Source: Verrucomicrobiota bacterium
Lineage (GTDB): Bacteria > Verrucomicrobiota > Verrucomicrobiia > Limisphaerales > UBA11358
Assembly: GCA_050012035.1 (NCBI GenBank)
Contig: JBEKHY010000003.1
Span: forward strand, 104,622 to 168,621
Direction: 5' to 3'
Length of the DNA stretch: 64,000 nt
In this document: positions 11,788-23,250 of the stretch, one piece after another
How the letters are laid out: the number at the start of each line of letters is the position of its first letter
How positions within the stretch are numbered: position 1 is the stretch's first letter
Made by a program: the position numbers and the translations under genes
Notes under the pieces: generated by a model
Seen by the model: only the letters and a program-made list of their open reading frames with translations
Told to the model about the DNA's origin: nothing
Databases searched by the model: none

Positions 11788-14700
11788 ATGCGTTCGCGCC
11801 GCATCATTCTGATTTCCGCGTGCCTGCTGCTGGTGGCGGGCGCGTGGTTCTTCTGGCCGCGTGGGAATGGCCGGGCCGGCTCGTCCACCCTCCGCAGTAT
11901 TGCTACGGAGGACGGGTCCAACCGTCCGCACAAAGCGGTTGCCCCGACGGTCCGTTCCGGCCCGACCGTGGCCCAGGCCACGCCTTTGACCTTTCTCTCG
12001 ACCAACAACCCCCGGGCCGCCGCCGCCGCCCGGGCCAGGGCATACCGATTCCGTTTTCGCCTGGCCAACACCACCAAAACCATCGGCGAATTAACGCGCG
12101 ATCCGCACGCGATACTGCTGGCCAACGCGCTCATTGACACGGAGGCCAAACTCGATCTGGCCATTCCCAAAAACCTGCAAGCCACGGGCGACCCGGGCGC
12201 TTACATCGTCCAGGCCCACGGCCCGATTGACAATGCCTTCCGGGCGACGCTGGCGGCAGCGGGCGCGCAAATCGTTTCCTACATCCCGAACAATGCCTAC
12301 CTCGTGAACCTTTCCGCGAGCGGCGCGAACAGCATCGCGTCGGAAGGATTTTCGGTGATTCCCTACGAGCCATATTACAAATTGAGTTCGTCGCTGCTGG
12401 CGGCGGTGGCGAACAACCAGCCGGCGGGTGAATTGAAGGTGGCGGCGTTTCCGGGCACGGCCGACGCCACCAAAACCGCGTTGGCAAAAATCGGCGTGAC
12501 CGTCGTTGCGGAAGAAACCACCCCGCTCGGCCCGTTGTTCGTCCTGCAGAACGTGAGCGACGTGACCGCCGTCGCGCAAATTCCCACGGTGCACATTGTC
12601 GAGCCGTCCTACAAGCGCGTCCCGGCGAACGATTTGTCGCGCGCGACGGTGGGCGTGGCGGCGAATGCGCAAACAACCAACAATTATATGAATCTTTCCG
12701 GGGCGAATGTGCTCGTGGAGGTGAACGACTCGGGCATTGACGCAACGCATCCGGATTTGTTGCCCCGGGTGTCCGGCGATCTGCCAACCAGCCTCGTGGA
12801 CACCGACGGCCACGGCACGCATGTGGCGGGCATCATTGCCGGTAACGGGGCGATGTCCACGACCGTGAGCAACGTGCCGGGTTCGACCTTTGGCACCAAC
12901 GGTTTCGCGGCGGTCGGCCAATTTCGCGGCATGGCGCCGGCGGCCCAATTGATTTCGGTAGGTTCCCTGGGTGGTGATACCAACGCCACGTCCGACCGTT
13001 ATTTGCAGGAAACACCGGCGCAAAGGAACGCGCTGATTTCCAACAACAGTTGGAATTACGATGGCGACAATGACTATGACCTGGCGGCGGCGAGCTACGA
13101 CGCGGCGGTGCGCGATGCGCTGGCGCAGGTGACCGGCTCGCAGCCGGTGCTGTTCGTGTTTTCGGCGGGCAACGACGGCAATGGCGACGACACGGACAGT
13201 TCACCCAACGGCACGCCCGACAGCATCGAATCGCCCGCCACGGCCAAAAACGTCATCACCGTGGGCGCCATCCAGGAGTTACGCAACATTAACAATCAGG
13301 TGACCAATGCGGATGGCACAGTTACCACTCCGTGGTTCAACGAAACCAGCACCGATTCCCGCGTCTACAGTTCTTCCGGCCGCGGCAACGTGGGCATCCT
13401 GACGGAGGGTACCTATGGCCGGTTCAAGCCGGACGTGGTGGCGCCGGGCACGTTTATTGTTTCCACCCGCTCCAGCCAGTGGGACATCGGGACGTTTTTC
13501 TTTGCCAGCCCGACCAACATCAGCGTCGGGATTAACCACATCGCACCCATCAAGCCGAACAGGCTGGGAGCAAATACATTTCCGCCTGTGTTTACGAATA
13601 CCGTTCAAGTGACCATCCAGTTGCTTCCCAACGGGGATTCGCCGGTTCCGTTTCCCAATCTGCCGATCTATTTCGGACTGCTGAGTCTAACACCAGTCTA
13701 CGATCATTTTACAACCAACAACCAGGTTTCCATCCCGCTCGACGGCGGCCTGACCATTGCCGACATCCTTAACACCGAAAGCATATATGGTGACTCATAT
13801 GCTTTCTACTACGCCATCAGCAACAGCACCAGCGAGCCGATCACTATGGATGTCGTTACCGAAATCTTCACAACCAACAACCCCGGCAACTCGCAACTGG
13901 TGTTGAGCAATTTGAACCAGTTCATCGGCACGCCCAACCCCAACAGCACCGGGCCGGGGCCGTATTACCGTTATGAAACCGGCACCAGCATGTCCGCGGC
14001 GGACGTGTCCGGCGTGCTGGCGTTGATAGACGATTACTTCACCAACACGCTGCGAACCGTGCCCAGCCCGGCGTTGCTCAAGGCCCTGCTCATCAATGGC
14101 GCGCGTCCCACCCAGGGTTACAACCTGCTGGTCCAAAACAATAACAACCCCGAAGGTTGGGGTTTGATCAGCCTGCCGGACTCGCTGCCGTCGGGCGTGA
14201 CGAACGTATCCGGCCCAAACGCAAGCTGCTCCAGCTTCTTTATTGACCAAAGCCCGACCAACGCGCTGGCCACCGGTGACCGCCATACGTTCCTGGTGAG
14301 CGTCAATCCCACCAATGGCGCGCAGGCGTATCCGTTGCGCGTGACGCTGGCCTGGACCGACCCGCCCGGCGACCCTGCCGCCGCCGTCAAGCTCGTCAAC
14401 AATCTCGACCTCGTCGTGACCAATCTCGATAACCCGGCAAATCCCGTTATTTTCTACGGCAACGACATCGGCGCGAGCTCGAGCTTTCCCTTCAACAACG
14501 CCCATGGCACGAACGACCCGGCCAATTTTGATAACATCAACAATATCGAGAATGTTTTCATCTCGTCGCAGCCGCAACTGGGCACGAATTATTCCATCAC
14601 CGTCATCGGCCGCGGCGTGAACGTCAACGCCGTCACCGCGCAGACGAACAACATCGTGCAGGATTTTGCGCTGGTGATTTCGTGCGGCGAAGGCGAAGTG

Positions 14701-17700
14701 ACCAATGCGATGACGGTGACCGACGCCGGCATTGCCACCAGTCCCACAAGCGACCAGCAGATCAATTTTCTCGTCGCCACCAATTCGCCGCTGCTCAACC
14801 AGTTCGTCGGCGCTAGCTCGCCGTTGCTGGGCACCAATACCATTCTTACCGGAACCAATTTCGGGTTTGCCCCCAACGCCATCCTTACGCTGGGTCAGAC
14901 CAACCAGTGGCATTTTTATGTGATTACCAATACGCTCGGTTATTCCAACGCCGCCTTCATCACGTTCCTGCCGGACACGCTTTCCATCCCGCGCATGGGT
15001 GTGTTTGCGGATTCGACGGCCAACGCCACCACCCCGGAAGCGGACATTGACGTGTATGTAACTACGGATTCGGGGTTGACGAATCTCAACCCGGTGACGA
15101 TTTCCAACTGCGTCCACGGCACCCAGGTTGGATTATCAGTTGGCATTCCGCCGGTCTTCAACGGCGCGTCATTGAGCCGCGGCGGCACCGAGTTCGTTGC
15201 GGACACGAACTCCCAGCCCCAGGAAATCTATTACATCGGCGTGCAGTCGGAGAGCCAGATGGCATCGGAATACGATTTTCTGCCCATCTTCAGCCAGACG
15301 CCGTTCAGCACGTTGAATAACGGCGTTCAGACCGTCAATGGGCAGCTACTCCCGGTCAACATCCCCGACGGCAACCTGCCGCACCCGGGCATCGCTTACA
15401 TTTTCGGGCTGGCCATTTATCCGATGACCGCGAATCAGGTCATCGCGAACGACGCGATTGTTCACACGAATTATGGCGACCTCATCGGCACGCTCAATCA
15501 CAACGGCGTCCGGACGGTGCTCAACAACCACGATGAGTTCGGCGGTGCGCCGGGACCTTTCACTTTTAGCTATGATGATTTTCCGGGCGGCACCAACCGG
15601 GCGTCGGATGGACCGGGCAGTCTGCTGAACTTCACCGGCAAGGAAGGCATCGGCCCGTGGATGCTGGTTGAAGCGGACACGCACCCGACCCAGGCCGGCT
15701 ACGTGTCGAACTACAGTCTGACCATTACACCTCACCAAAACGCCGCCAACGGCATTTACATCACACTCCAACCGGGCCAGTCTTACCGGGATTACATTGA
15801 CGCGCCGGTAGGCTATACCAGCTTTACGGTGTTTGCGACGAATCTGCCGCCGCCCCTTCCTGCACCAATGCAACTCTTTGTCGAACCAGTGCCAAATGTG
15901 GTTCCACCACTTCCACCAGCGACCGACACCAATGAATTGGGGCCAGCAGGGCTGACCAATGGTGTTATACCGGGCAATTCGCTCTCAGTGGGTCCGCCGC
16001 TGACGCCGGGACGTTATTGGTATGTCGTTTACAACCCGCTCGGCAACCCGCTCGCTACGACGACAAACCTTTATATTCTTGCCAAGTTGAACTTCTCGCA
16101 GTCGGCGATTACGACGGTGGATTATCGTTCGAGCGGGCCGGTGCCGATTTTGGATGACGCGGTGTCGTATTCGATCATCAACGTGCCGAACACGGACACC
16201 ATCCAGGACTTCAACGTGGGGCTGCGGGTGGACCATCCGCGCATTTCGGACCTGGTGTTTCATTTAATCACCCCGGACGGCACGCGCTATCTGCTGATGG
16301 AAAACCGGGGCGGCACCAGTACCAACGGCTGCGGCGCAACCATCACCAACAGTTTCTTTGCCCCGGCATCGTCTTCCGGCAGCTATCAGCCCTCCACCAA
16401 CGTCATTGACACCGGCGAAACCGCCGGCTCGTTCACCGTCAACTACAATTTCTTCCCCGTCCCGGACGAGATGGAAATATTTTACGAGGGCACCGTGCTC
16501 ACCAACACCGGGTTCATCAGCGGCCCCGGTCAGTTCAACCTCAACTTCGGCCCCGGCACCAGCACCCAGATCACGGTCGTCATGAACCCGAACAGCAATC
16601 CGATCCAGGCCACGTACTGGACTTACACCGTCAGCGGTTCCCAGACCCACTTCCTTTACCTCGCGTTCACCGAGAACACGAACCTGACAACCACGCCCAT
16701 CAAGTACGCGCCGCCGCCGTTTGTGCCCGTGTATTTCACGACCAATTTCACCCTGGGCGATTTTGACTTCGCGGCGGCGGGGGATTATGTGGCGCCCACG
16801 AACGTGGCCGGCTGGGGCGTGACCACCAACCAGGTGAGCGTGGTCAATGACCCGCCCAATGCCCCGGTCGGAAACCAATTTCTGGCATTGGTGCTCGGGA
16901 CCATTACCACAAACCTGCCCACCATCCCCGGTGTGACCTACACCCTCAGTTACAACTATCGCGGGCCGGGCGTCGTCGGCTGGTGGCGCGGTGAAAACAC
17001 TACGACCAATGAACTGGCGGGAGTCAATGATGGTATCGGGAATCCTACCTATGGCGCCGGAAAGGTGGGCAATGGTTTCGTAATCAGCGACGCCAACGCT
17101 TACGTGGAAATTCCCGCCAGTTCGTCGCTGGACGTTGGTTCGGGACCCGGACTGACTTTGGAAGCGTGGATCAATCCCACCGATGTGACCAGTGGCGCTA
17201 TTCATCCGGTTTTTGAGTGGAACGACGCTATCAATGCACAAACCACCGGCCTCAGCGGAGTTTACTTGTGGGTAACATCCCCCGGCGTTCTTACCGCCAA
17301 CCTCGTGGATGCCAATACTGACTCAACGAATGTCTTCCAAACGGGACCAAACGCGATCTCGGCGAATGCTTTTCAACATGTGGCGCTGACTTACAACCAA
17401 ACGACCGGTGTGGCGATTCTCTATACGAATGGGGTCGCTGCTGCCAGCACTAATTTGGTCATCGTTCCACAAACGAGCTACAATTTGTGGCTGGGGTATA
17501 ATCCCGGCAACCCACTAGGCATGGCCAGCGACCACCCCGCCGTTTTCGATGGTACGATTGATGAACCCAGCATCTACAACCGCGCCCTTTCGGCGAGTGA
17601 AATCAAGGCCATTTATACCCTGGGCGGCGCGGGCAAATTCTTTCAGAGCTCCGAGGTTTCGGCTCCGGAGAACCTCGCCGTGGCGAGCGTCACCATTCCC

Positions 17701-20700
17701 GGAGTCGGCACCAGTGTCATTTATGGCAACAATACCACCTGGCAGTCGGGCGGGGCCACCTTCACGGCCGCCTGGACCCAGACGCCGGTGACTATCAGCG
17801 GGATTGAGCCGGGGATTTTGCTGGATGACTTCTCCCTGTCCGGGGCGAAAGGCGGCAATCTGTATTACCAGCCGGAAGAGGACATGAGCGCCATCAACGG
17901 CACCAGCGCCAAGGGCACCAGCGGCAAGGGCACATGGACCCTGGAAATTCAGGATGACCGCGCGGGCGACGCCGGCACGCTTCTGGGCTGGCAACTGGAA
18001 TTCCTCTTTGCCAACACCAATGTCATACCGCCACCGCCCACCCTCATCGGCGGCCAGCCGCAAACGAATGTCATTCCCCCGGGCGGTTTCGCGTATTTCG
18101 GCGTCCTCGTGCCCGCAAACGCGGACATCGCCACGAATATCCTGCTGTTCAGCACCGGGCCGGTGAACCTGTGGTTTAACTCAAACAACCTGCCCGTCGG
18201 CGCAAGCCCGCCGGATTATCTGCTGATGGGCACCGCAACCAATGGCGTTTCAATTTTGACCACCACGAGCGTGCCGACGAACATCGTGCCCGGCTCGATT
18301 TATTATCTGGGCGTGCAAAACCCGAACAGTTACACCGTCACCAACGCCATCGAAGTGGACTTTCATTATTTGACCGCGGCCAGCCCGCCCATCGTCATCT
18401 CCGGCATCATGGCCACCAACATCGGCGGGAAGTTCGGTTTCCTGCTCACCTGGTATGCCCCCACCAACGATATCTTCATGGTGCAATGGACGGGCAGCCT
18501 CAATCCGCCCGTCACGTGGAACACCTTCACCAACATCATCACGTACACGTCGCTTACGCCCACGAACGGCATTGGCTTCTTCGAGTTCTTTGATGATGGC
18601 TCGCAGACCGGCGGGTTTGGCCCCCAGCGCTTTTACCGGTTGCTCCTGATAGCGCAAAGCCTGATCAACGGCCAGACGTACACCATTGCCCCCGGAGCCA
18701 CTAACTTCTTTTCGGTCAACGTGCCGACCAACGCGGATTTCGCCACCAACAGTCTGCTGTTCGCCACCGGGCCGCTGAACATCTGGTTCGACACGAATGC
18801 GCCGCCCACGACCGATGTCTTTCTGTTCAGCGGGACCAGTGGCTCCTACATCCTGTCCACGACCGGCACTCCGCCGCTGGTGCCCGGCGGGACTTATTAT
18901 CTGGGCGTGCAAAACACAAACAGTTTCAGCGTGACTTACGCCCTCGCGGTGGACTTTCATTTGTTGTTGCCCCCGCCCCCCATTTTCATCTCCGGCATCA
19001 CCTACACCAACATCGGCGGGACGAATGGGTTCCTGCTCACGTGGTATGCCCCCACCAACGATATCTTCATGGTGCAATGGACGGGCAGCCTCAATCCGCC
19101 CGTCGCGTGGAACACCTTCACCAACATCATCACTTACACCGGCCCGCCGCCGCCACCCACAAATGGCATCGGCCTGTTCAGCTTCTTCGATGACGGCTCG
19201 CAGACCGGCGGGTTTGGCCCCCAGCGCTTTTACCGGCTGCTGCTGGTGGGCAGCCTCGCCGGCGGTGTGCCGCAGACAAACTCCGTTTTGACCGGCGGCC
19301 TGGATTACTTCCGGGTCAACGTGCCGACGAACGCGGATTTCGCCACCAACACCCTGCTCTTTGCCGGCGCGCCGGTGAACGTGTGGTTCGCCACGAACCC
19401 CCCGCCCGCCACCAATGTCTTTCTGTTCAGCGGAACCAATGGGTCTTACACCCTGTCAACGACCGGCACCCCGCCGCTGGTGCCCGGCGGGACTTACTGG
19501 CTGATCGTGCAAAACACGAACAGTTTCACCGTCACTTACGGCCTCGAAGTGGACTTTCATTTGTTGTTGGCCCCGCCCCCCATTTTCATCTCCGGCATCA
19601 CCTACACCAACATCGGCGGGACGAACGGGTTCCTGCTCACGTGGCTCGCGCCGACCAACGACGTTTTCCAGGTGCAATGGTCGGACACGTTGTCGCCGGC
19701 GAACTGGCAGTTCTTCACCAATTTTATTTATTACACCGGCCCGCCCACGCCCACGAACGGGTGGTTCTCCTTCTTCGACGACGGCTCGCAGACCGGCGGG
19801 TTTGGCCCCCAGCGCTTTTACCGGCTGCTGCTGGTGGGCAGCCTCGCCGGCGGTGTGCCGCAGACAAACTCCGTTGCCACCGGCGGCCTTGATTACTTCC
19901 GGGTCAACGTGCCGACGAACGCGGATTTTGCCACCAACACCCTGCTCTTTGCCGGCGCGCCGGTGAACGTGTGGTTCGCCACGAACCCCCCGCCCGCGAC
20001 CAATCTCTTTTTGTTCAGCGGAACCAATGGGTCTTACACCCTGTCCACGACCGGCACTCCGCCGCTGGTGCCCGGCGGGACTTACTGGCTGATCGTGCAA
20101 AACCCGAAAAGTTTCACCGTCACTTACGGCCTCGAAGTGGATTTCCACCTGCAGACCGCGGCGAACATTCCGATTACGGTTTCGGGCATCACGTTCACGA
20201 ATCTGAACGGAACGAACGGTTTCCTGCTCACGTGGCTCGCGCCGACCAACGACGTTTTCCAGGTGCAATGGTCGGACACTTTGTCGCCGGCGAACTGGCA
20301 GTTCTTCACCAATTTTATTTATTACACCGGCCCGCCCACGCCCACGAACGGGTGGTTCTCCTTCTTCGACGACGGCTCGCAAACGCCGCCCGGTTTGCCG
20401 CCGGCGCGTTATTACCGGATCGTGCTGGCCGGCTCGGGCGCGTCAACGCACACCAACGCGGTGTTCCTCAGCAGCGTCGTCTCGACCAACATGACCGGGA
20501 CGAACGGTTTCTGGCTCACGTGGTCCGCGCCGACGAATTATCTCTTCGAGGTGCAATGGACAACCAATCTGGTGCCGGTCGTCACGTGGCGCACGTTCCC
20601 GGACATCATTGGTTACAGCACACTCGTCGGCCCCTCGAACAGCCTGTTCAATTTCTTTGACAATGGCGCGCAAGGCGGCCTCGGCCCGTTGAAATTTTAC

Positions 20701-20721
20701 CGGCTCCTCCTGCTGCCGTAG
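11788..20721 (+). CDS. Giant secreted S8 (subtilisin-family) peptidase with P-domains, a LamG-type domain and C-terminal tandem repeats
   Basis: 2977 aa with an N-terminal signal anchor (MRSRRIILISACLLLVAGAWFF). Catalytic triad contexts: VEVNDSGID, DGHGTHVAGIIAG, GTSMSAADVSG. Proprotein-convertase P-domain-like segments (e.g. DHPRISDLVFHLITPDGTRYLL, GTWTLEIQDDRAGDAGTLLGWQLEF). LamG-like segment (LTLEAWINP...FDGTIDEPSIYNRALSASEI). Confidence 0.9.
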   Translation: MRSRRIILISACLLLVAGAWFFWPRGNGRAGSSTLRSIATEDGSNRPHKAVAPTVRSGPTVAQATPLTFLSTNNPRAAAAARARAYRFRFRLANTTKTIGELTRDPHAILLANALIDTEAKLDLAIPKNLQATGDPGAYIVQAHGPIDNAFRATLAAAGAQIVSYIPNNAYLVNLSASGANSIASEGFSVIPYEPYYKLSSSLLAAVANNQPAGELKVAAFPGTADATKTALAKIGVTVVAEETTPLGPLFVLQNVSDVTAVAQIPTVHIVEPSYKRVPANDLSRATVGVAANAQTTNNYMNLSGANVLVEVNDSGIDATHPDLLPRVSGDLPTSLVDTDGHGTHVAGIIAGNGAMSTTVSNVPGSTFGTNGFAAVGQFRGMAPAAQLISVGSLGGDTNATSDRYLQETPAQRNALISNNSWNYDGDNDYDLAAASYDAAVRDALAQVTGSQPVLFVFSAGNDGNGDDTDSSPNGTPDSIESPATAKNVITVGAIQELRNINNQVTNADGTVTTPWFNETSTDSRVYSSSGRGNVGILTEGTYGRFKPDVVAPGTFIVSTRSSQWDIGTFFFASPTNISVGINHIAPIKPNRLGANTFPPVFTNTVQVTIQLLPNGDSPVPFPNLPIYFGLLSLTPVYDHFTTNNQVSIPLDGGLTIADILNTESIYGDSYAFYYAISNSTSEPITMDVVTEIFTTNNPGNSQLVLSNLNQFIGTPNPNSTGPGPYYRYETGTSMSAADVSGVLALIDDYFTNTLRTVPSPALLKALLINGARPTQGYNLLVQNNNNPEGWGLISLPDSLPSGVTNVSGPNASCSSFFIDQSPTNALATGDRHTFLVSVNPTNGAQAYPLRVTLAWTDPPGDPAAAVKLVNNLDLVVTNLDNPANPVIFYGNDIGASSSFPFNNAHGTNDPANFDNINNIENVFISSQPQLGTNYSITVIGRGVNVNAVTAQTNNIVQDFALVISCGEGEVTNAMTVTDAGIATSPTSDQQINFLVATNSPLLNQFVGASSPLLGTNTILTGTNFGFAPNAILTLGQTNQWHFYVITNTLGYSNAAFITFLPDTLSIPRMGVFADSTANATTPEADIDVYVTTDSGLTNLNPVTISNCVHGTQVGLSVGIPPVFNGASLSRGGTEFVADTNSQPQEIYYIGVQSESQMASEYDFLPIFSQTPFSTLNNGVQTVNGQLLPVNIPDGNLPHPGIAYIFGLAIYPMTANQVIANDAIVHTNYGDLIGTLNHNGVRTVLNNHDEFGGAPGPFTFSYDDFPGGTNRASDGPGSLLNFTGKEGIGPWMLVEADTHPTQAGYVSNYSLTITPHQNAANGIYITLQPGQSYRDYIDAPVGYTSFTVFATNLPPPLPAPMQLFVEPVPNVVPPLPPATDTNELGPAGLTNGVIPGNSLSVGPPLTPGRYWYVVYNPLGNPLATTTNLYILAKLNFSQSAITTVDYRSSGPVPILDDAVSYSIINVPNTDTIQDFNVGLRVDHPRISDLVFHLITPDGTRYLLMENRGGTSTNGCGATITNSFFAPASSSGSYQPSTNVIDTGETAGSFTVNYNFFPVPDEMEIFYEGTVLTNTGFISGPGQFNLNFGPGTSTQITVVMNPNSNPIQATYWTYTVSGSQTHFLYLAFTENTNLTTTPIKYAPPPFVPVYFTTNFTLGDFDFAAAGDYVAPTNVAGWGVTTNQVSVVNDPPNAPVGNQFLALVLGTITTNLPTIPGVTYTLSYNYRGPGVVGWWRGENTTTNELAGVNDGIGNPTYGAGKVGNGFVISDANAYVEIPASSSLDVGSGPGLTLEAWINPTDVTSGAIHPVFEWNDAINAQTTGLSGVYLWVTSPGVLTANLVDANTDSTNVFQTGPNAISANAFQHVALTYNQTTGVAILYTNGVAAASTNLVIVPQTSYNLWLGYNPGNPLGMASDHPAVFDGTIDEPSIYNRALSASEIKAIYTLGGAGKFFQSSEVSAPENLAVASVTIPGVGTSVIYGNNTTWQSGGATFTAAWTQTPVTISGIEPGILLDDFSLSGAKGGNLYYQPEEDMSAINGTSAKGTSGKGTWTLEIQDDRAGDAGTLLGWQLEFLFANTNVIPPPPTLIGGQPQTNVIPPGGFAYFGVLVPANADIATNILLFSTGPVNLWFNSNNLPVGASPPDYLLMGTATNGVSILTTTSVPTNIVPGSIYYLGVQNPNSYTVTNAIEVDFHYLTAASPPIVISGIMATNIGGKFGFLLTWYAPTNDIFMVQWTGSLNPPVTWNTFTNIITYTSLTPTNGIGFFEFFDDGSQTGGFGPQRFYRLLLIAQSLINGQTYTIAPGATNFFSVNVPTNADFATNSLLFATGPLNIWFDTNAPPTTDVFLFSGTSGSYILSTTGTPPLVPGGTYYLGVQNTNSFSVTYALAVDFHLLLPPPPIFISGITYTNIGGTNGFLLTWYAPTNDIFMVQWTGSLNPPVAWNTFTNIITYTGPPPPPTNGIGLFSFFDDGSQTGGFGPQRFYRLLLVGSLAGGVPQTNSVLTGGLDYFRVNVPTNADFATNTLLFAGAPVNVWFATNPPPATNVFLFSGTNGSYTLSTTGTPPLVPGGTYWLIVQNTNSFTVTYGLEVDFHLLLAPPPIFISGITYTNIGGTNGFLLTWLAPTNDVFQVQWSDTLSPANWQFFTNFIYYTGPPTPTNGWFSFFDDGSQTGGFGPQRFYRLLLVGSLAGGVPQTNSVATGGLDYFRVNVPTNADFATNTLLFAGAPVNVWFATNPPPATNLFLFSGTNGSYTLSTTGTPPLVPGGTYWLIVQNPKSFTVTYGLEVDFHLQTAANIPITVSGITFTNLNGTNGFLLTWLAPTNDVFQVQWSDTLSPANWQFFTNFIYYTGPPTPTNGWFSFFDDGSQTPPGLPPARYYRIVLAGSGASTHTNAVFLSSVVSTNMTGTNGFWLTWSAPTNYLFEVQWTTNLVPVVTWRTFPDIIGYSTLVGPSNSLFNFFDNGAQGGLGPLKFYRLLLLP
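18040..20425 (+). repeat. Tandem array of four ~196-199-aa units inside the S8 gene, plus a partial fifth module at 20440-20718
   Basis: The string cagaccggcgggtttggcccccagcgcttttaccgg occurs at 18604, 19201 and 19789, giving spacings of 597 and 588 nt. Units 3 and 4 share long nucleotide-identical runs. Each unit ends in ...FFDDGSQTGGFGPQRFYRLLL. Confidence 0.9.
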
Positions 20722-20965
20722 CCAGGCGTTTTCCGAGCTGGTGCATTTTTTGAGCGGGTACAGACGCGGCCATGTTCCGAAGGAACATTTGAGGATAGCC
20801 CGGCATTTTAACCCCGACATCGGTTGTCGGGGTCAAACGCCGGGTTACCCTCAGGAAATCCCTGCGAGCCTACACCAGGTTTGCCATTACACGTTGTCCC
20901 CAAATTGGGTCGTGTATCGCTAGAGTGTTGCCGGAAGCCCTGAAATTGGGCTTGCGGAAACGGAT

Positions 20966-21208
20966 GTGTTTCGCAAGAGTGGCCAATCTATGACTGCAAC
21001 CAATGAAGATTTGACTAAAGCCGTTCTCGCGCTTTCCAGCCTTATGGCAACTGTGCTAGAGATGCAGGCGACAATGGCGGGGATTGTGACGCCTTTGGCG
21101 TCAAATCTGAACGGGAAGGAGAAAGCAGATTTACTATACGCCGTGCAAGAAGGTCGTACTCTTGCAGCCGGGTTACGAGAGACTGCCAAACAATTGGCAG
21201 AGTCGTAA
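20966..21208 (+). CDS. Hypothetical small protein (transposon passenger)
   Basis: 80-aa ORF inside the IS. No recognisable motif. An alternative start at 20990 is possible. Confidence 0.35.
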   Translation: MFRKSGQSMTATNEDLTKAVLALSSLMATVLEMQATMAGIVTPLASNLNGKEKADLLYAVQEGRTLAAGLRETAKQLAES

Positions 21209-21343
21209 CCGTGCGGTTTGAATCTACTTTCAATCTGTCTTGATTGTCCATTTGTTGTTTCACCTCCTTTCATTGGGAAAAAATTTCTCATGGCGAACGC
21301 AGAACATTTTTGGGCGCGGAAATCAATCATAATTTACCCTTTC

Positions 21344-22306
21344 TTATTGACTCGTTGCATTGTCAATCAGTTCTTCAATTGTCCATGCCCTGTCCGTCAA
21401 GCCTACGCCGTGCGCTGGCGTTGTGCCGAGCGTATGATGAATTTTGCAAAAGTTGTAAGCGGCAACGAACAGACTGACGGCGTGCCGATGATTGGTCAGC
21501 TTGCGTGAATAGCCTAAACCCAAACGGGCAAAGCGTTTGTTGAAGTGGCGGACAGACAGATTGGCGCGTTCAACAAATGACGTGCTGATTCTGTCCGCGC
21601 GCGGCGCTCCGGCGCGAATCCGCACGCGAACGCCCGTGCAACGTGGCGGCGAATATCGCCGTTGCGCCTCCACGCGCTCATTGAGCGGCGTCTCGTAAAT
21701 CTTTTGCATGGTGGCAAAGTCCAAGCGTTCCAATAGATATTTCCTGATGATAAATGGATAGGAACGCCATGAATCGGTTGTGATTTGAATGCGGCCAGCA
21801 ATCCGCGCGGCCACATCCGCGATAAAGGTGTCCGTGTTGTCAAAATCACGTTTGCCGGTGTGATAGCTGACAATGAATTTCTCGCGCGCGGTGACGGCAA
21901 GATAGGTGTATTGGTCGCCGCGCTCCACATGGCTTTTAATCGTTTGCCGTTGGCTCGCTCCGACGCGCGCCCACAGTTCGTCTATTTGCAAAGAACCAAT
22001 TGTGAGATTGCGGACAACTCTATCGTGAAACGCATCGCACTTTTGCCCGACTGTTGCCAACACATTTAAGACCGTGTTTGGAATGCAATTTACCAGGCGC
22101 GCAGTCCCGCGAACGCCAACGCCCTCGGTCAAGAGCTTGATGATCTGAACCGCTTTGTCGTGGTCAATCCGCAAATCGTCCAACGGTTGCGCGGCGGAAA
22201 ATGATTTGCCGCATCGCAGACATTGGAAACGTTGCACCATACGATTTTTATTCCGATATGTTCCTGACTTTTTACTCTCACCGCCACAACAACAACACGT
22301 CGTCAT
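21344..22306 (-). CDS. IS1-family-like DDE transposase
   Basis: 320 aa. N-terminal Cys-rich zinc finger (CCCCGG...FQCLRCGKSF). DDE-context motifs IDELW, ITTDSWRSY and TSFVERANLSVRHFNKRFARLGLGYSRKLTNH...YNFCKIHHTLGTTPA, as in single-ORF IS1-type transposases. Confidence 0.8.
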   Translation of the reverse strand: MTTCCCCGGESKKSGTYRNKNRMVQRFQCLRCGKSFSAAQPLDDLRIDHDKAVQIIKLLTEGVGVRGTARLVNCIPNTVLNVLATVGQKCDAFHDRVVRNLTIGSLQIDELWARVGASQRQTIKSHVERGDQYTYLAVTAREKFIVSYHTGKRDFDNTDTFIADVAARIAGRIQITTDSWRSYPFIIRKYLLERLDFATMQKIYETPLNERVEAQRRYSPPRCTGVRVRIRAGAPRADRISTSFVERANLSVRHFNKRFARLGLGYSRKLTNHRHAVSLFVAAYNFCKIHHTLGTTPAHGVGLTDRAWTIEELIDNATSQ

Positions 22307-22541
22307 TTTTAGCTCGACTTTCTTCGGCCAAAACTCTAACGTGCCCTTGTATCTGCAAGGATATGCAATCAGTTAGGTCTTTGGCCTACGGTTGCGCCCT
22401 GCCGGTGCTTAGAACCACTGACAGGGCATGATTTTAGTTTTGTTCTTTGGGATTAGGGCGCGGTGTCTTGCGCGAATGAAACGCAATTAACCGTTACGGC
22501 TTGTTCAGCCCCGCGTCCGTTCTCGAAAACTGGTTGTTTGA

Positions 22542-22615
22542 ATGGCTGGACAGGAATTGAACCTGTATCTTGCCCCTTCGCATGAGGCTGCTCTGTCCAT
22601 TTGAGCTACCAGCCC
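22542..22615 (-). tRNA. tRNA-Arg (anticodon GCG), located inside the transposon
   Basis: The reverse complement folds by hand into a cloverleaf: GGGCTGG-TA-GCTC-AAATGGACA-GAGC-A-GCCTC-ATGCGAA-GGGGC-AAGAT-ACAGG-TTCAATT-CCTGT-CCAGCCA-T. Position 1:72 is a G:A mismatch and no CCA is encoded. Confidence 0.75.
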
Positions 22616-22647
22616 TTCCCCGGCGGCAGTAACCCGCCGGGGAAATT

Positions 22648-23043
22648 TTATCCGGCCATTTCTGCCTTTCGTTTGTAGGTTCGGTTTCCTTCACCATCGG
22701 TCGTGATGATGATGAAACCCACCTTGCCAAGCCGGGTCAAAACGGTGCTTATCGCCGAACCGAAAATTCGCTGGCGAGTGTCAAAGCCGCGACTTTGCAG
22801 AAGCTCCCGAACCCTAGCCGTGCAAAACACCTGCTCCGGTTCGGCGTCAAATATGTTTCTCACGGCCTCGGTTATTCCAAACGGAGTAGTTACACCGTTT
22901 TGGCTAGTTGGTGATTGTGTGATTGAATCGTAGCGCCGTTGCGCTGATTCGAGCCGGGCAATGATTTTACCAAGCTCTTTGCAACGCAGTTCGTGCTTAA
23001 CCAATTCAGACCTTACTTGTTCTAATGTTATTGTGTTTTTCAT
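22648..23043 (-). CDS. Hypothetical protein, possibly winged-helix (transposon passenger)
   Basis: 131 aa from ATG 23043; the track ORF starts at 23085. AT-rich. The C-terminal part (AISTVLTRLGKVGFIIITTDGEGNRTYKRK) looks wHTH-like, which is a weak inference. Confidence 0.45.
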   Translation of the reverse strand: MKNTITLEQVRSELVKHELRCKELGKIIARLESAQRRYDSITQSPTSQNGVTTPFGITEAVRNIFDAEPEQVFCTARVRELLQSRGFDTRQRIFGSAISTVLTRLGKVGFIIITTDGEGNRTYKRKAEMAG

Positions 23044-23250
23044 TTCAACATCCGCCAAGCATACTGTGGCAATAACGTCAATCATGTTTATTCAATTCCA
23101 ATCACAAGTGATTGCAAATCAAATAGAAATAGATTTAACTACACTCTGGCGATACACGACCCCAAATTGAGGTGCGCCCGTGTTTTTCTTTGCTTTCCCG
23201 GCCGTTTGGGATAGCCTCTTCCTTTTGTTGAAAGCGAGAAATTCGCGGCC

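Follow-up and report, generated by a model that had tools for sequence, protein, structure and literature searches.

We analysed a 64,000-nucleotide stretch of the Verrucomicrobiota contig JBEKHY010000003.1 (assembly GCA_050012035.1), hereafter the window, and find that positions 20908-23161 are one intact, single-copy transporter insertion sequence (tIS) of a divergent IS1-family lineage from peat Verrucomicrobiota. The element carries a tRNA-Arg gene, and the conservation of that gene indicates that it is a selected payload and not debris. Along the minus strand the parts follow one another as a winged-helix gene, a stem-loop, the tRNA-Arg, a structured leader and the transposase, an order that is fixed in one monophyletic sub-lineage. 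As to function, we give roughly even credence to the tRNA being an expressed, chargeable tRNA-Arg payload that would serve as an alternative to the host tRNA-Arg(ICG), as in phage tRNAs. A sequence-only reading of this DNA had described an IS1-like single unit with clean ends that holds a tRNA-Arg and two small open reading frames (ORFs), and this structural description is correct.

The inverted repeats at the ends of the element are 21 bp long, agree at 20 of 21 positions and both open with GGTCGTGTATCGC. With its variable position written as Y, the 21-mer is found at only two sites in the window and at none in 100 shuffles. A perfect 8-bp direct repeat abuts both inverted repeats, as the sequence-only reading had described from the same termini beginning GGT, and the gene ends on either side bear out its placement of the insertion between the S8-protease gene and uvrA. 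The G+C content of the element is 50%, against 59-62% in the flanks. It had been considered that the two repeats might belong to different elements and so form a composite. Three further complete elements, L011, L012 and L069, have the same order of parts as the window copy at different sites with distinct 8-bp duplications, and because four elements of one layout each have their own separate duplication, the repeats bound a single unit, which moves as a whole by DDE transposition. Using a script that seeks GG-initiated repeats flanked by direct repeats, we located GGTCG[TC]G termini with perfect 8-bp duplications in 14 related loci. The elements at these loci measure 2254-5132 bp, and their left repeat stands 0.8-2.4 kb away from the transposase. 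Carriage of cargo is the rule in the lineage and fits the published definition of a tIS, an insertion sequence (IS) derivative with passenger genes inside its repeats (PMC9330008). In a scan of species-representative genomes, relatives were found mostly in bins labelled Verrucomicrobiota, Verrucomicrobiia or Limisphaerales, and the isolate names of many of these bins contain bog, palsa or SPRUCE.

An identical transposase is present on 23 metagenome contigs. All ten of the placements listed, on contigs of up to 199 kb, are at the uvrA/S8-protease locus and at no other, so the element is single-copy in the population. The transposition had also been proposed to be fairly recent. This is not shown, because exact look-ups found no empty site among the 23 transposase contigs or among the contigs with an identical UvrA (7 of 7 occupied).

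Two independent finders, ARAGORN and the Rfam tRNA model, accept the tRNA-Arg(GCG) gene of the window. Its Rfam score is 49.9 bits against a gathering score of 29, with 66.2 bits for a host tRNA-Met in the same window, and scores across the element tRNAs run from 34.9 to 51.8 bits. The matching slot holds a tRNA-Arg in the window, in L011, L012 and L069, and in two sets of short contigs (L067/L076/L077 and L074/L075), giving six distinct variants. Each of the six has the cloverleaf as its fold of minimum free energy. The tertiary nucleotides U8, A14, G18 and G19 and the T-loop are present, and the bases of tertiary interactions are invariant. The gene has U73 and does not encode CCA. The G1:A72 mismatch that had been seen in a hand fold is real and is fixed in all six variants.

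Pairwise, the six variants are 89-96% identical, compared with 48-63% at four-fold degenerate sites of the transposase and 32-83% in the sequence upstream of the tRNA. The silent sites are thus near saturation, and the tRNA is under strong purifying selection. One pair, 49:65, has undergone a compensatory change from A:U to G:C. Positions A20, C35, G36, A37 and A38 are invariant; A20, C35 and G36 are the identity elements of arginyl-tRNA synthetase, as established for E. coli. Only 11 of 75 alignment columns vary, among them positions 33 and 34, which are normally among the most constrained in a tRNA. Across the six variants position 33 is U, C, U, C, A and C, and position 34 is G, A, A, A, C and A; the window copy keeps U33 but has G34, not A34. 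The resulting anticodons, ACG (four variants), GCG (the window copy) and CCG (L069), all read Arg CGN. The tRNA-bearing transposases form one clade, and relatives whose transposases are at most 74% identical have no tRNA. The simplest history that these sequences suggest is that the tRNA was acquired once and has since been kept over at least four transpositions. With regard to its source, the closest phage tRNA shares only 78% identity with it; a pattern scan of metagenomes returned copies of the same elements only, and a second pattern scan of viral sequences returned nothing. A high-GC viral contig with a tRNA array (L072, 12227-12255) holds a fragment that equals the first ~27 nt of the IS tRNA (GGGCTGGTAGCTCAAATGGACAGAG) and stops before the anticodon arm.

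The 31-nt gap between the stop codon of the accessory ORF and the tRNA consists wholly of the stem-loop. It scores as a terminator for plus-strand (antisense) transcription only, and compensatory changes conserve it in L069. No sense-direction terminator was found, and a sigma-70 consensus scan for a promoter of the tRNA itself did no better than on shuffles. About 20 nt beyond the 3' end of the tRNA begins helix 1 of a leader of ~215 nt, in which 23 pairs are predicted in four helices, 11 of them with compensatory changes. In the alignment 90% of cells are paired, versus 33-47% in slid controls, and none of 500 shuffles reaches the observed covariation. The leader matches no Rfam family. It is also seen in L014, L019, L021, L024, L034, L040 and others, ~240 nt upstream of the transposase. 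An outer helix, GGCCAAAGACCTAAC...GTTAGAGTTTTGGCC, lies just before the ribosome-binding region, additional to the four helices.

Table 1. Features of the element, its insertion site and its complete relatives (window coordinates)
Feature	Position	Strand	Basis or remark
Complete IS1-family transporter IS, 2254 bp	20908-23161		sequence
Target-site duplication, left copy, CCAAATTG	20900-20907	.	same as 23162-23169; adjoins inverted repeat
Target-site duplication, right copy, CCAAATTG	23162-23169	.	sequence
Terminal inverted repeat distal to transposase start, GGTCGTGTATCGCTAGAGTGT	20908-20928	+	sequence comparison
Terminal inverted repeat next to accessory gene, reverse complement GGTCGTGTATCGCCAGAGTGT	23141-23161	-	sequence comparison
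Small ORF, 80 aa from GTG (72 aa from ATG at 20990)	20966-21208	+	convergent with transposase
Single-ORF IS1-family DDE transposase, 320 aa	21344-22306	-	NCBIfam NF033558 and weak Pfam matches
Structured 5' leader of transposase mRNA	22307-22520	-	covariation; kept with or without tRNA
tRNA-Arg, anticodon GCG	22540-22616 (Rfam core 22542-22615)	-	ARAGORN and Rfam
GC-rich stem-loop, 11 pairs, between accessory-ORF stop and tRNA 5' end	22616-22644	-	
Accessory gene, 145 aa, probably 131 aa from M15	22648-23085	-	homologues start near M15
S8 protease gene end	20721		left flank of element
uvrA start	23251		right flank of element
L011 element			transposase 86% identical to window; duplication AGCAGCCC
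L012 element			transposase 86% identical to window; duplication CGCCATTT
L069 element			transposase 80% identical to window; duplication AAATCCTC

The family assignment rests on the transposase. Its best match is the NCBIfam family transpos_IS1 (NF033558; E=3e-20), with a score of 73 bits that falls short of the curated cut-off, 100 bits. The Pfam matches are weak: DDE_Tnp_IS1 reaches 22.6 bits against a threshold of 24.1, and HTH_Tnp_IS1 covers residues 54-83 at E=0.013. The N-terminus contains a Cys-rich, zinc-finger-like segment followed by a helix-turn-helix (HTH), with C29 and C32 invariant and CxCC conserved (alignment A1). Because these N-terminal Cys residues are conserved, we place the start of the protein at 22306. 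Among 5.8 billion proteins there are 620 homologues, many of which are named IS1 family transposase by their source, and the closest annotated plasmid genes are IS1 family transposases that share at most 37% identity with it. Purifying selection acts on the transposase ORFs, which are intact. Homology to IS1 is significant, and the sequence comparisons indicate that the branch is divergent.

Both of the small ORFs that the sequence-only reading had listed are present, and the 80-aa ORF stands as it was drawn. It has a homologue at the matching place in L069 and none in the L011 and L012 elements, and there is no match above threshold to it in Pfam, NCBIfam, PADLOC or PHROGs. The other, read as 131 aa and possibly a winged HTH, has the proposed length if the 145-aa ORF is started at M15; its fold is winged-helix-like in a model, with structural matches of E=0.04 at best. 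In that AlphaFold model, which is of modest confidence (pLDDT 63.5), a long helix precedes a C-terminal domain of order H-H-H-beta-beta. Foldseek ranks mostly winged-helix DNA-binding proteins at the top, none of them at E<=0.001. Searches of Pfam, NCBIfam, PADLOC, PHROGs and sequences in the PDB gave nothing usable for either of the two small ORFs. Homologues of the 145-aa ORF are 60-73% identical, and every detectable one is followed by the tRNA. Remote homologues are found upstream of the transposase in the tRNA-less L021, L031 and L047; related genes in that place argue that the ORF is not random cargo, and it looks like an accessory or regulatory gene of the family.

Other relatives carry a variety of cargo. 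Among the tRNA-less elements, L014 (1781-5232) contains a SocA/Panacea antitoxin-type domain, L020 (2111-6309) a SecB-like gene beside a weak PARP-like match, and L034 (1588-6059) a weak PIN-like match together with a 367-aa RelA/SpoT-domain protein. DUF4760 is found as cargo in L012, which bears a tRNA, and DUF6232 in L050. To judge by these domains, the cargo of the relatives appears to have a toxin-antitoxin or conflict-system flavour, which makes a conflict-related role of the tRNA plausible.

Viral contigs were also scanned with the transposase alignment (228 loci) and 80 of the loci were examined. Their transposases are 34-60% identical, most of them 35-42%. ARAGORN places a tRNA, or a gene resembling one, 13-429 nt upstream of the transposase ORF and in its orientation in 14 of the 80 loci; Rfam confirms 11 loci at or above the gathering score, several of which have two or three tRNAs in tandem. 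Elsewhere in ~520 kb there are only four or five tRNAs, and by our own arithmetic ~0.25 would be expected by chance in the upstream windows. The tRNA lies inside the repeats wherever the ends could be mapped (L081, L084, L087, L090, L097, L130 and L140), with duplications of 8 or 9 bp. The L130 element, for example, is only 1323 bp long, has perfect 16-bp repeats and the duplication AATCTCCC, and contains the transposase and a tRNA whose variable arm is long and whose anticodon is UUA. The tRNA species differ among these distant elements, whose bearers are spread over at least eight branches of the transposase tree, and several of the tRNAs have non-canonical anticodon loops. Between tRNA and transposase, L130 and L097 have a promoter-like TTGAC(C/T)-N17-TAT..T, and therefore co-transcription of the two is not universal. 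The sequence-only reading had called a tRNA gene unusual as an IS passenger; this holds for the literature that we searched, but such genes recur within the IS1-like superfamily.

Several of the distant elements deserve a separate description. One to three upstream tRNAs on the same strand are seen in L081, L090, L097, L100, L115, L122, L124, L130, L139, L140 and L147, at ~2600-2900 in each except L139 (1142-1212); in L115 there are three in tandem. The tRNAs of L130 (2791-2874) and L124 (2724-2811) combine a long variable arm with the anticodon UUA, which would pair with the stop codon UAA, and they are suppressor-like. L081 (2793-2869) and L122 (2792-2865) have short-variable-arm tRNAs with the anticodons ACU and GCU (serine codons), and both have A20, C35 and U36, which are arginine-like identity features. 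It is speculative, but if these two were charged with Arg they would misread AGY codons. Some tRNA genes of the host or of a phage lie outside the elements, beside IS1-like copies: L087 has a tRNA-Thr (1249-1320) that ends 32 nt before the left repeat, and in L158 (4209-4516) a tRNA-Arg(UCU) and a permuted tmRNA are found downstream of an IS1-like copy.

If the tRNA-Arg of the window is a payload in the sense proposed above, the winged-helix gene, stem-loop, tRNA, leader and transposase would share a single transcript that starts at a promoter close to the repeat. The host would then excise the tRNA, RNase P at the 5' end and an endonuclease with CCA addition at the 3' end, and arginyl-tRNA synthetase would most likely charge it. 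A spare or alternative tRNA-Arg of this kind could stay usable when host tRNA-Arg is limiting or inactivated. The decoy or replacement tRNA that the sequence-only reading had suggested is thus still plausible. G34 in the window copy would remove the need for A34-to-I editing, and changes at 33/34 could blunt an anticodon-loop nuclease. In 25 ORFs of the window, the host encodes Arg as CGC (50%), CGG (27%), CGT (12%) and CGA (4%), and the Arg codon usage of the elements does not track the anticodon variant. We therefore rejected a supply of rare codons or of the element's own codons as the benefit, since the tRNA reads the commonest Arg codons of the host and element usage is independent of the anticodon. 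Compared with a standard bacterial tRNA-Arg(ICG), the window tRNA differs exactly in the anticodon loop and at 1:72. As common codons are read and the differences fall at these places, a spare or alternative tRNA-Arg would be the most likely benefit. The identity set is kept while 33/34 are free and 1:72 is open, which fits recognition as tRNA-Arg better than efficient decoding.

A number of observations weigh against an alternative tRNA-Arg of this kind. In bacteria a mismatch at 1:72 is a hallmark of the initiator tRNA and is unfavourable to EF-Tu, and nearly all tRNAs have U33. G1·A72 in 6 of 6 variants and a base other than U33 in 4 of 6 are expected to weaken elongation, so the RNA may not serve mainly in decoding. 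The clustering of variation at 33/34 is of modest significance (p about 0.03, a rough estimate from six variants only). Neither the window nor the tRNA-bearing elements yielded a nuclease that targets tRNA-Arg. The sixth variant (L074, 1336-1410) has a G30·G40 mismatch in the anticodon stem, which counts on the same side; it also has G3·U70 and C73, and these features may be the start of decay in that lineage. Finally, in many lineages and for different tRNA species the gene strictly shares the orientation of the transposase and adjoins it, which would also fit a role in cis.

Such a role is the best of the alternatives, though a doubtful one: the tRNA would be mainly a cis-acting RNA module for expression of the element's own genes, with decoding secondary. 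As processing punctuation it might separate the accessory-gene message from that of the transposase, and RNase P and 3' processing might define where the leader starts or protect translation of the transposase against read-through transcription. The position of the tRNA is consistent with this, as it is co-oriented with and directly upstream of the transposase in six variants and again, as different species, in 14 of the 80 distant loci. So are the ~20 nt between its 3' end and helix 1 of a leader that is family-wide, the conserved stem-loop at its 5' end, which could shield the upstream message after RNase P cleavage, and the non-canonical anticodon loops that are common among IS-borne tRNAs. 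Processing, however, mainly needs the acceptor and T arms, yet invariance extends here to the D arm and anticodon stem, to A20 and to positions 35-38, with neutral sites close to saturation. Most family members have the same leader and transposase without any tRNA, and the promoter-like sites of L130 and L097 argue that co-transcription is not obligatory.

We find it unlikely that the gene is simply an extra tRNA-Arg copy that raises decoding capacity, with its anticodon drifting between ACG, GCG and CCG to fit host demand. In favour of this are a conserved, well-formed tRNA, three anticodons that each still read Arg CGN, and a transposase that is itself Arg-rich (35 of 320 residues). However, the codons read are the commonest in the host, which must already decode them, and codon usage of the elements is independent of the anticodon. 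Moreover, selection for efficient decoding would not be expected to retain a fixed G1·A72, or C or A in place of U33.

Far less probable still is a T-box-like device, in which the leader would read the element's tRNA-Arg or its charging and so set translation of the transposase. The covarying leader does begin ~20 nt past the tRNA, and the retention of A20, C35 and G36 while 33/34 are free points to synthetase identity and not ribosomal decoding. Against this, the four complete elements have no complement of anticodon-loop positions 33-37 at a homologous position, the window and L069 are without any sense-strand complement of the anticodon loop, and the leader is unchanged in tRNA-less relatives and has no Rfam T-box match. 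A lone 6-mer complement of the anticodon loop in the terminal repeat of L011 is not shared by the other elements and was treated as chance.

It is scarcely credible that the tRNA is a pseudogene or a hitch-hiker without function, or that the whole is an accidental composite of repeats from different elements: the lower Rfam score of the tRNA relative to the host tRNA-Met and its G1·A72 mismatch would suit decay, but its identity far exceeds that of neutral sites, four elements of the same architecture each have their own duplication, and the transposase ORFs are intact under purifying selection.

Transporter ISs are already known, as are tRNAs on phages, plasmids and integrative elements. In the literature searched, most subscription journals being outside its coverage, we met no account of an IS with a tRNA gene as an integral passenger. 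We suggest tentatively, as a possibility that we ourselves rate as rather low, that these IS1-like elements form an unrecognised class of tRNA-carrying transposons in which the upstream tRNA or tRNA-like gene is a working part. If that were true, the tRNAs of the class could be non-standard (wobble variants, suppressor-like forms, or chargeable but poorly decoding) and could rewire or protect host decoding; alternatively, the tRNA might gate transposase expression. The tRNA-Arg of the window, with free 33/34, a fixed G1·A72 and an intact Arg identity, would then be specialised beyond ordinary elongation. In the usual view an IS carries nothing or protein-coding passengers, and a selected tRNA in a recurrent slot departs from that. 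Genes for tRNAs, including wobble variants and suppressor-like forms, could spread among genomes and phages by transposition. At 1.3-2.3 kb the elements offer a tractable system for asking why mobile elements carry tRNAs, be it for counter-defence, altered decoding or control of their own expression. They also draw attention to a conserved, unannotated structured leader RNA before these transposases. Annotation pipelines that mask ISs may miscount the tRNA complement of such genomes.

Some features of the surroundings may be added. The start codon of uvrA is only 81 nt from the end of the element (window 23162-23250), and the insertion may have displaced or replaced the native uvrA promoter. 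On the other side, window 11788-20721 is a 2977-aa ORF for an S8-family protease with several near-identical C-terminal repeat modules; the overlapping long ORFs on both strands within this gene are artefacts of the repeat modules. In L069, which is a short contig, two tyrosine-recombinase (phage integrase) genes (23-1620) lie directly outside the left repeat.

Compared with members of the IS1 family in ISfinder, the element has a homologous DDE enzyme with an N-terminal Cys-rich segment and HTH, repeats of ~20 bp that begin with GGT, and 8-bp duplications where the family has 8-9 bp. Unlike classical IS1, it encodes its transposase in one uninterrupted ORF, without the -1 frameshift between insA and insB, which excludes the classical IS1 subgroup but not the IS1 family. 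The elements described here are 2.2-5.1 kb long owing to their cargo, in contrast to ~0.8 kb for IS1, have the covarying leader, and, in the case of the window copy, encode a transposase that scores below the cut-offs for curated IS1 in both NCBIfam and Pfam. ISfinder also lists long members of the IS1 family with passenger genes (the ISMhu11 group), a name for which the literature searched gave no result.

In gene order the element resembles the E. coli thrU-tyrU-glyT-thrT-tufB operon, a tRNA-mRNA co-transcript whose tRNAs are excised from the longer transcript: in both, a protein gene is preceded by a tRNA in the same orientation, without an intervening terminator. The window tRNA differs in being part of a transposon, where an accessory gene precedes it and the transposase follows, and where co-transcription would be expected from the layout. 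As in other tISs, the tRNA, accessory ORF and small ORF are inside the repeats, and the cargo moves with the element and varies among family members. Unlike the usual tIS, the passenger here is a tRNA gene in one fixed slot and orientation, and it is more conserved than the silent sites of the transposase.

Phage tRNAs that neutralise tRNA-targeting defences have been documented (PMC10264068, PMC11464382, PMC11555353). The tRNAs of T5 act against PARIS (PMC11464382), phage tRNAs also act against retron effectors (PMC11555353), and mutation of the anticodon loop has been put forward as a hypothesis for phage tRNAs (PMC10264068). In our case the carrier is a 2.25-kb chromosomal IS and the specificity is Arg, with a putative counter-defence effect. 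Like the defence-evading phage tRNAs, however, the tRNA of the element duplicates a common host specificity, and its variation is concentrated in the anticodon loop.

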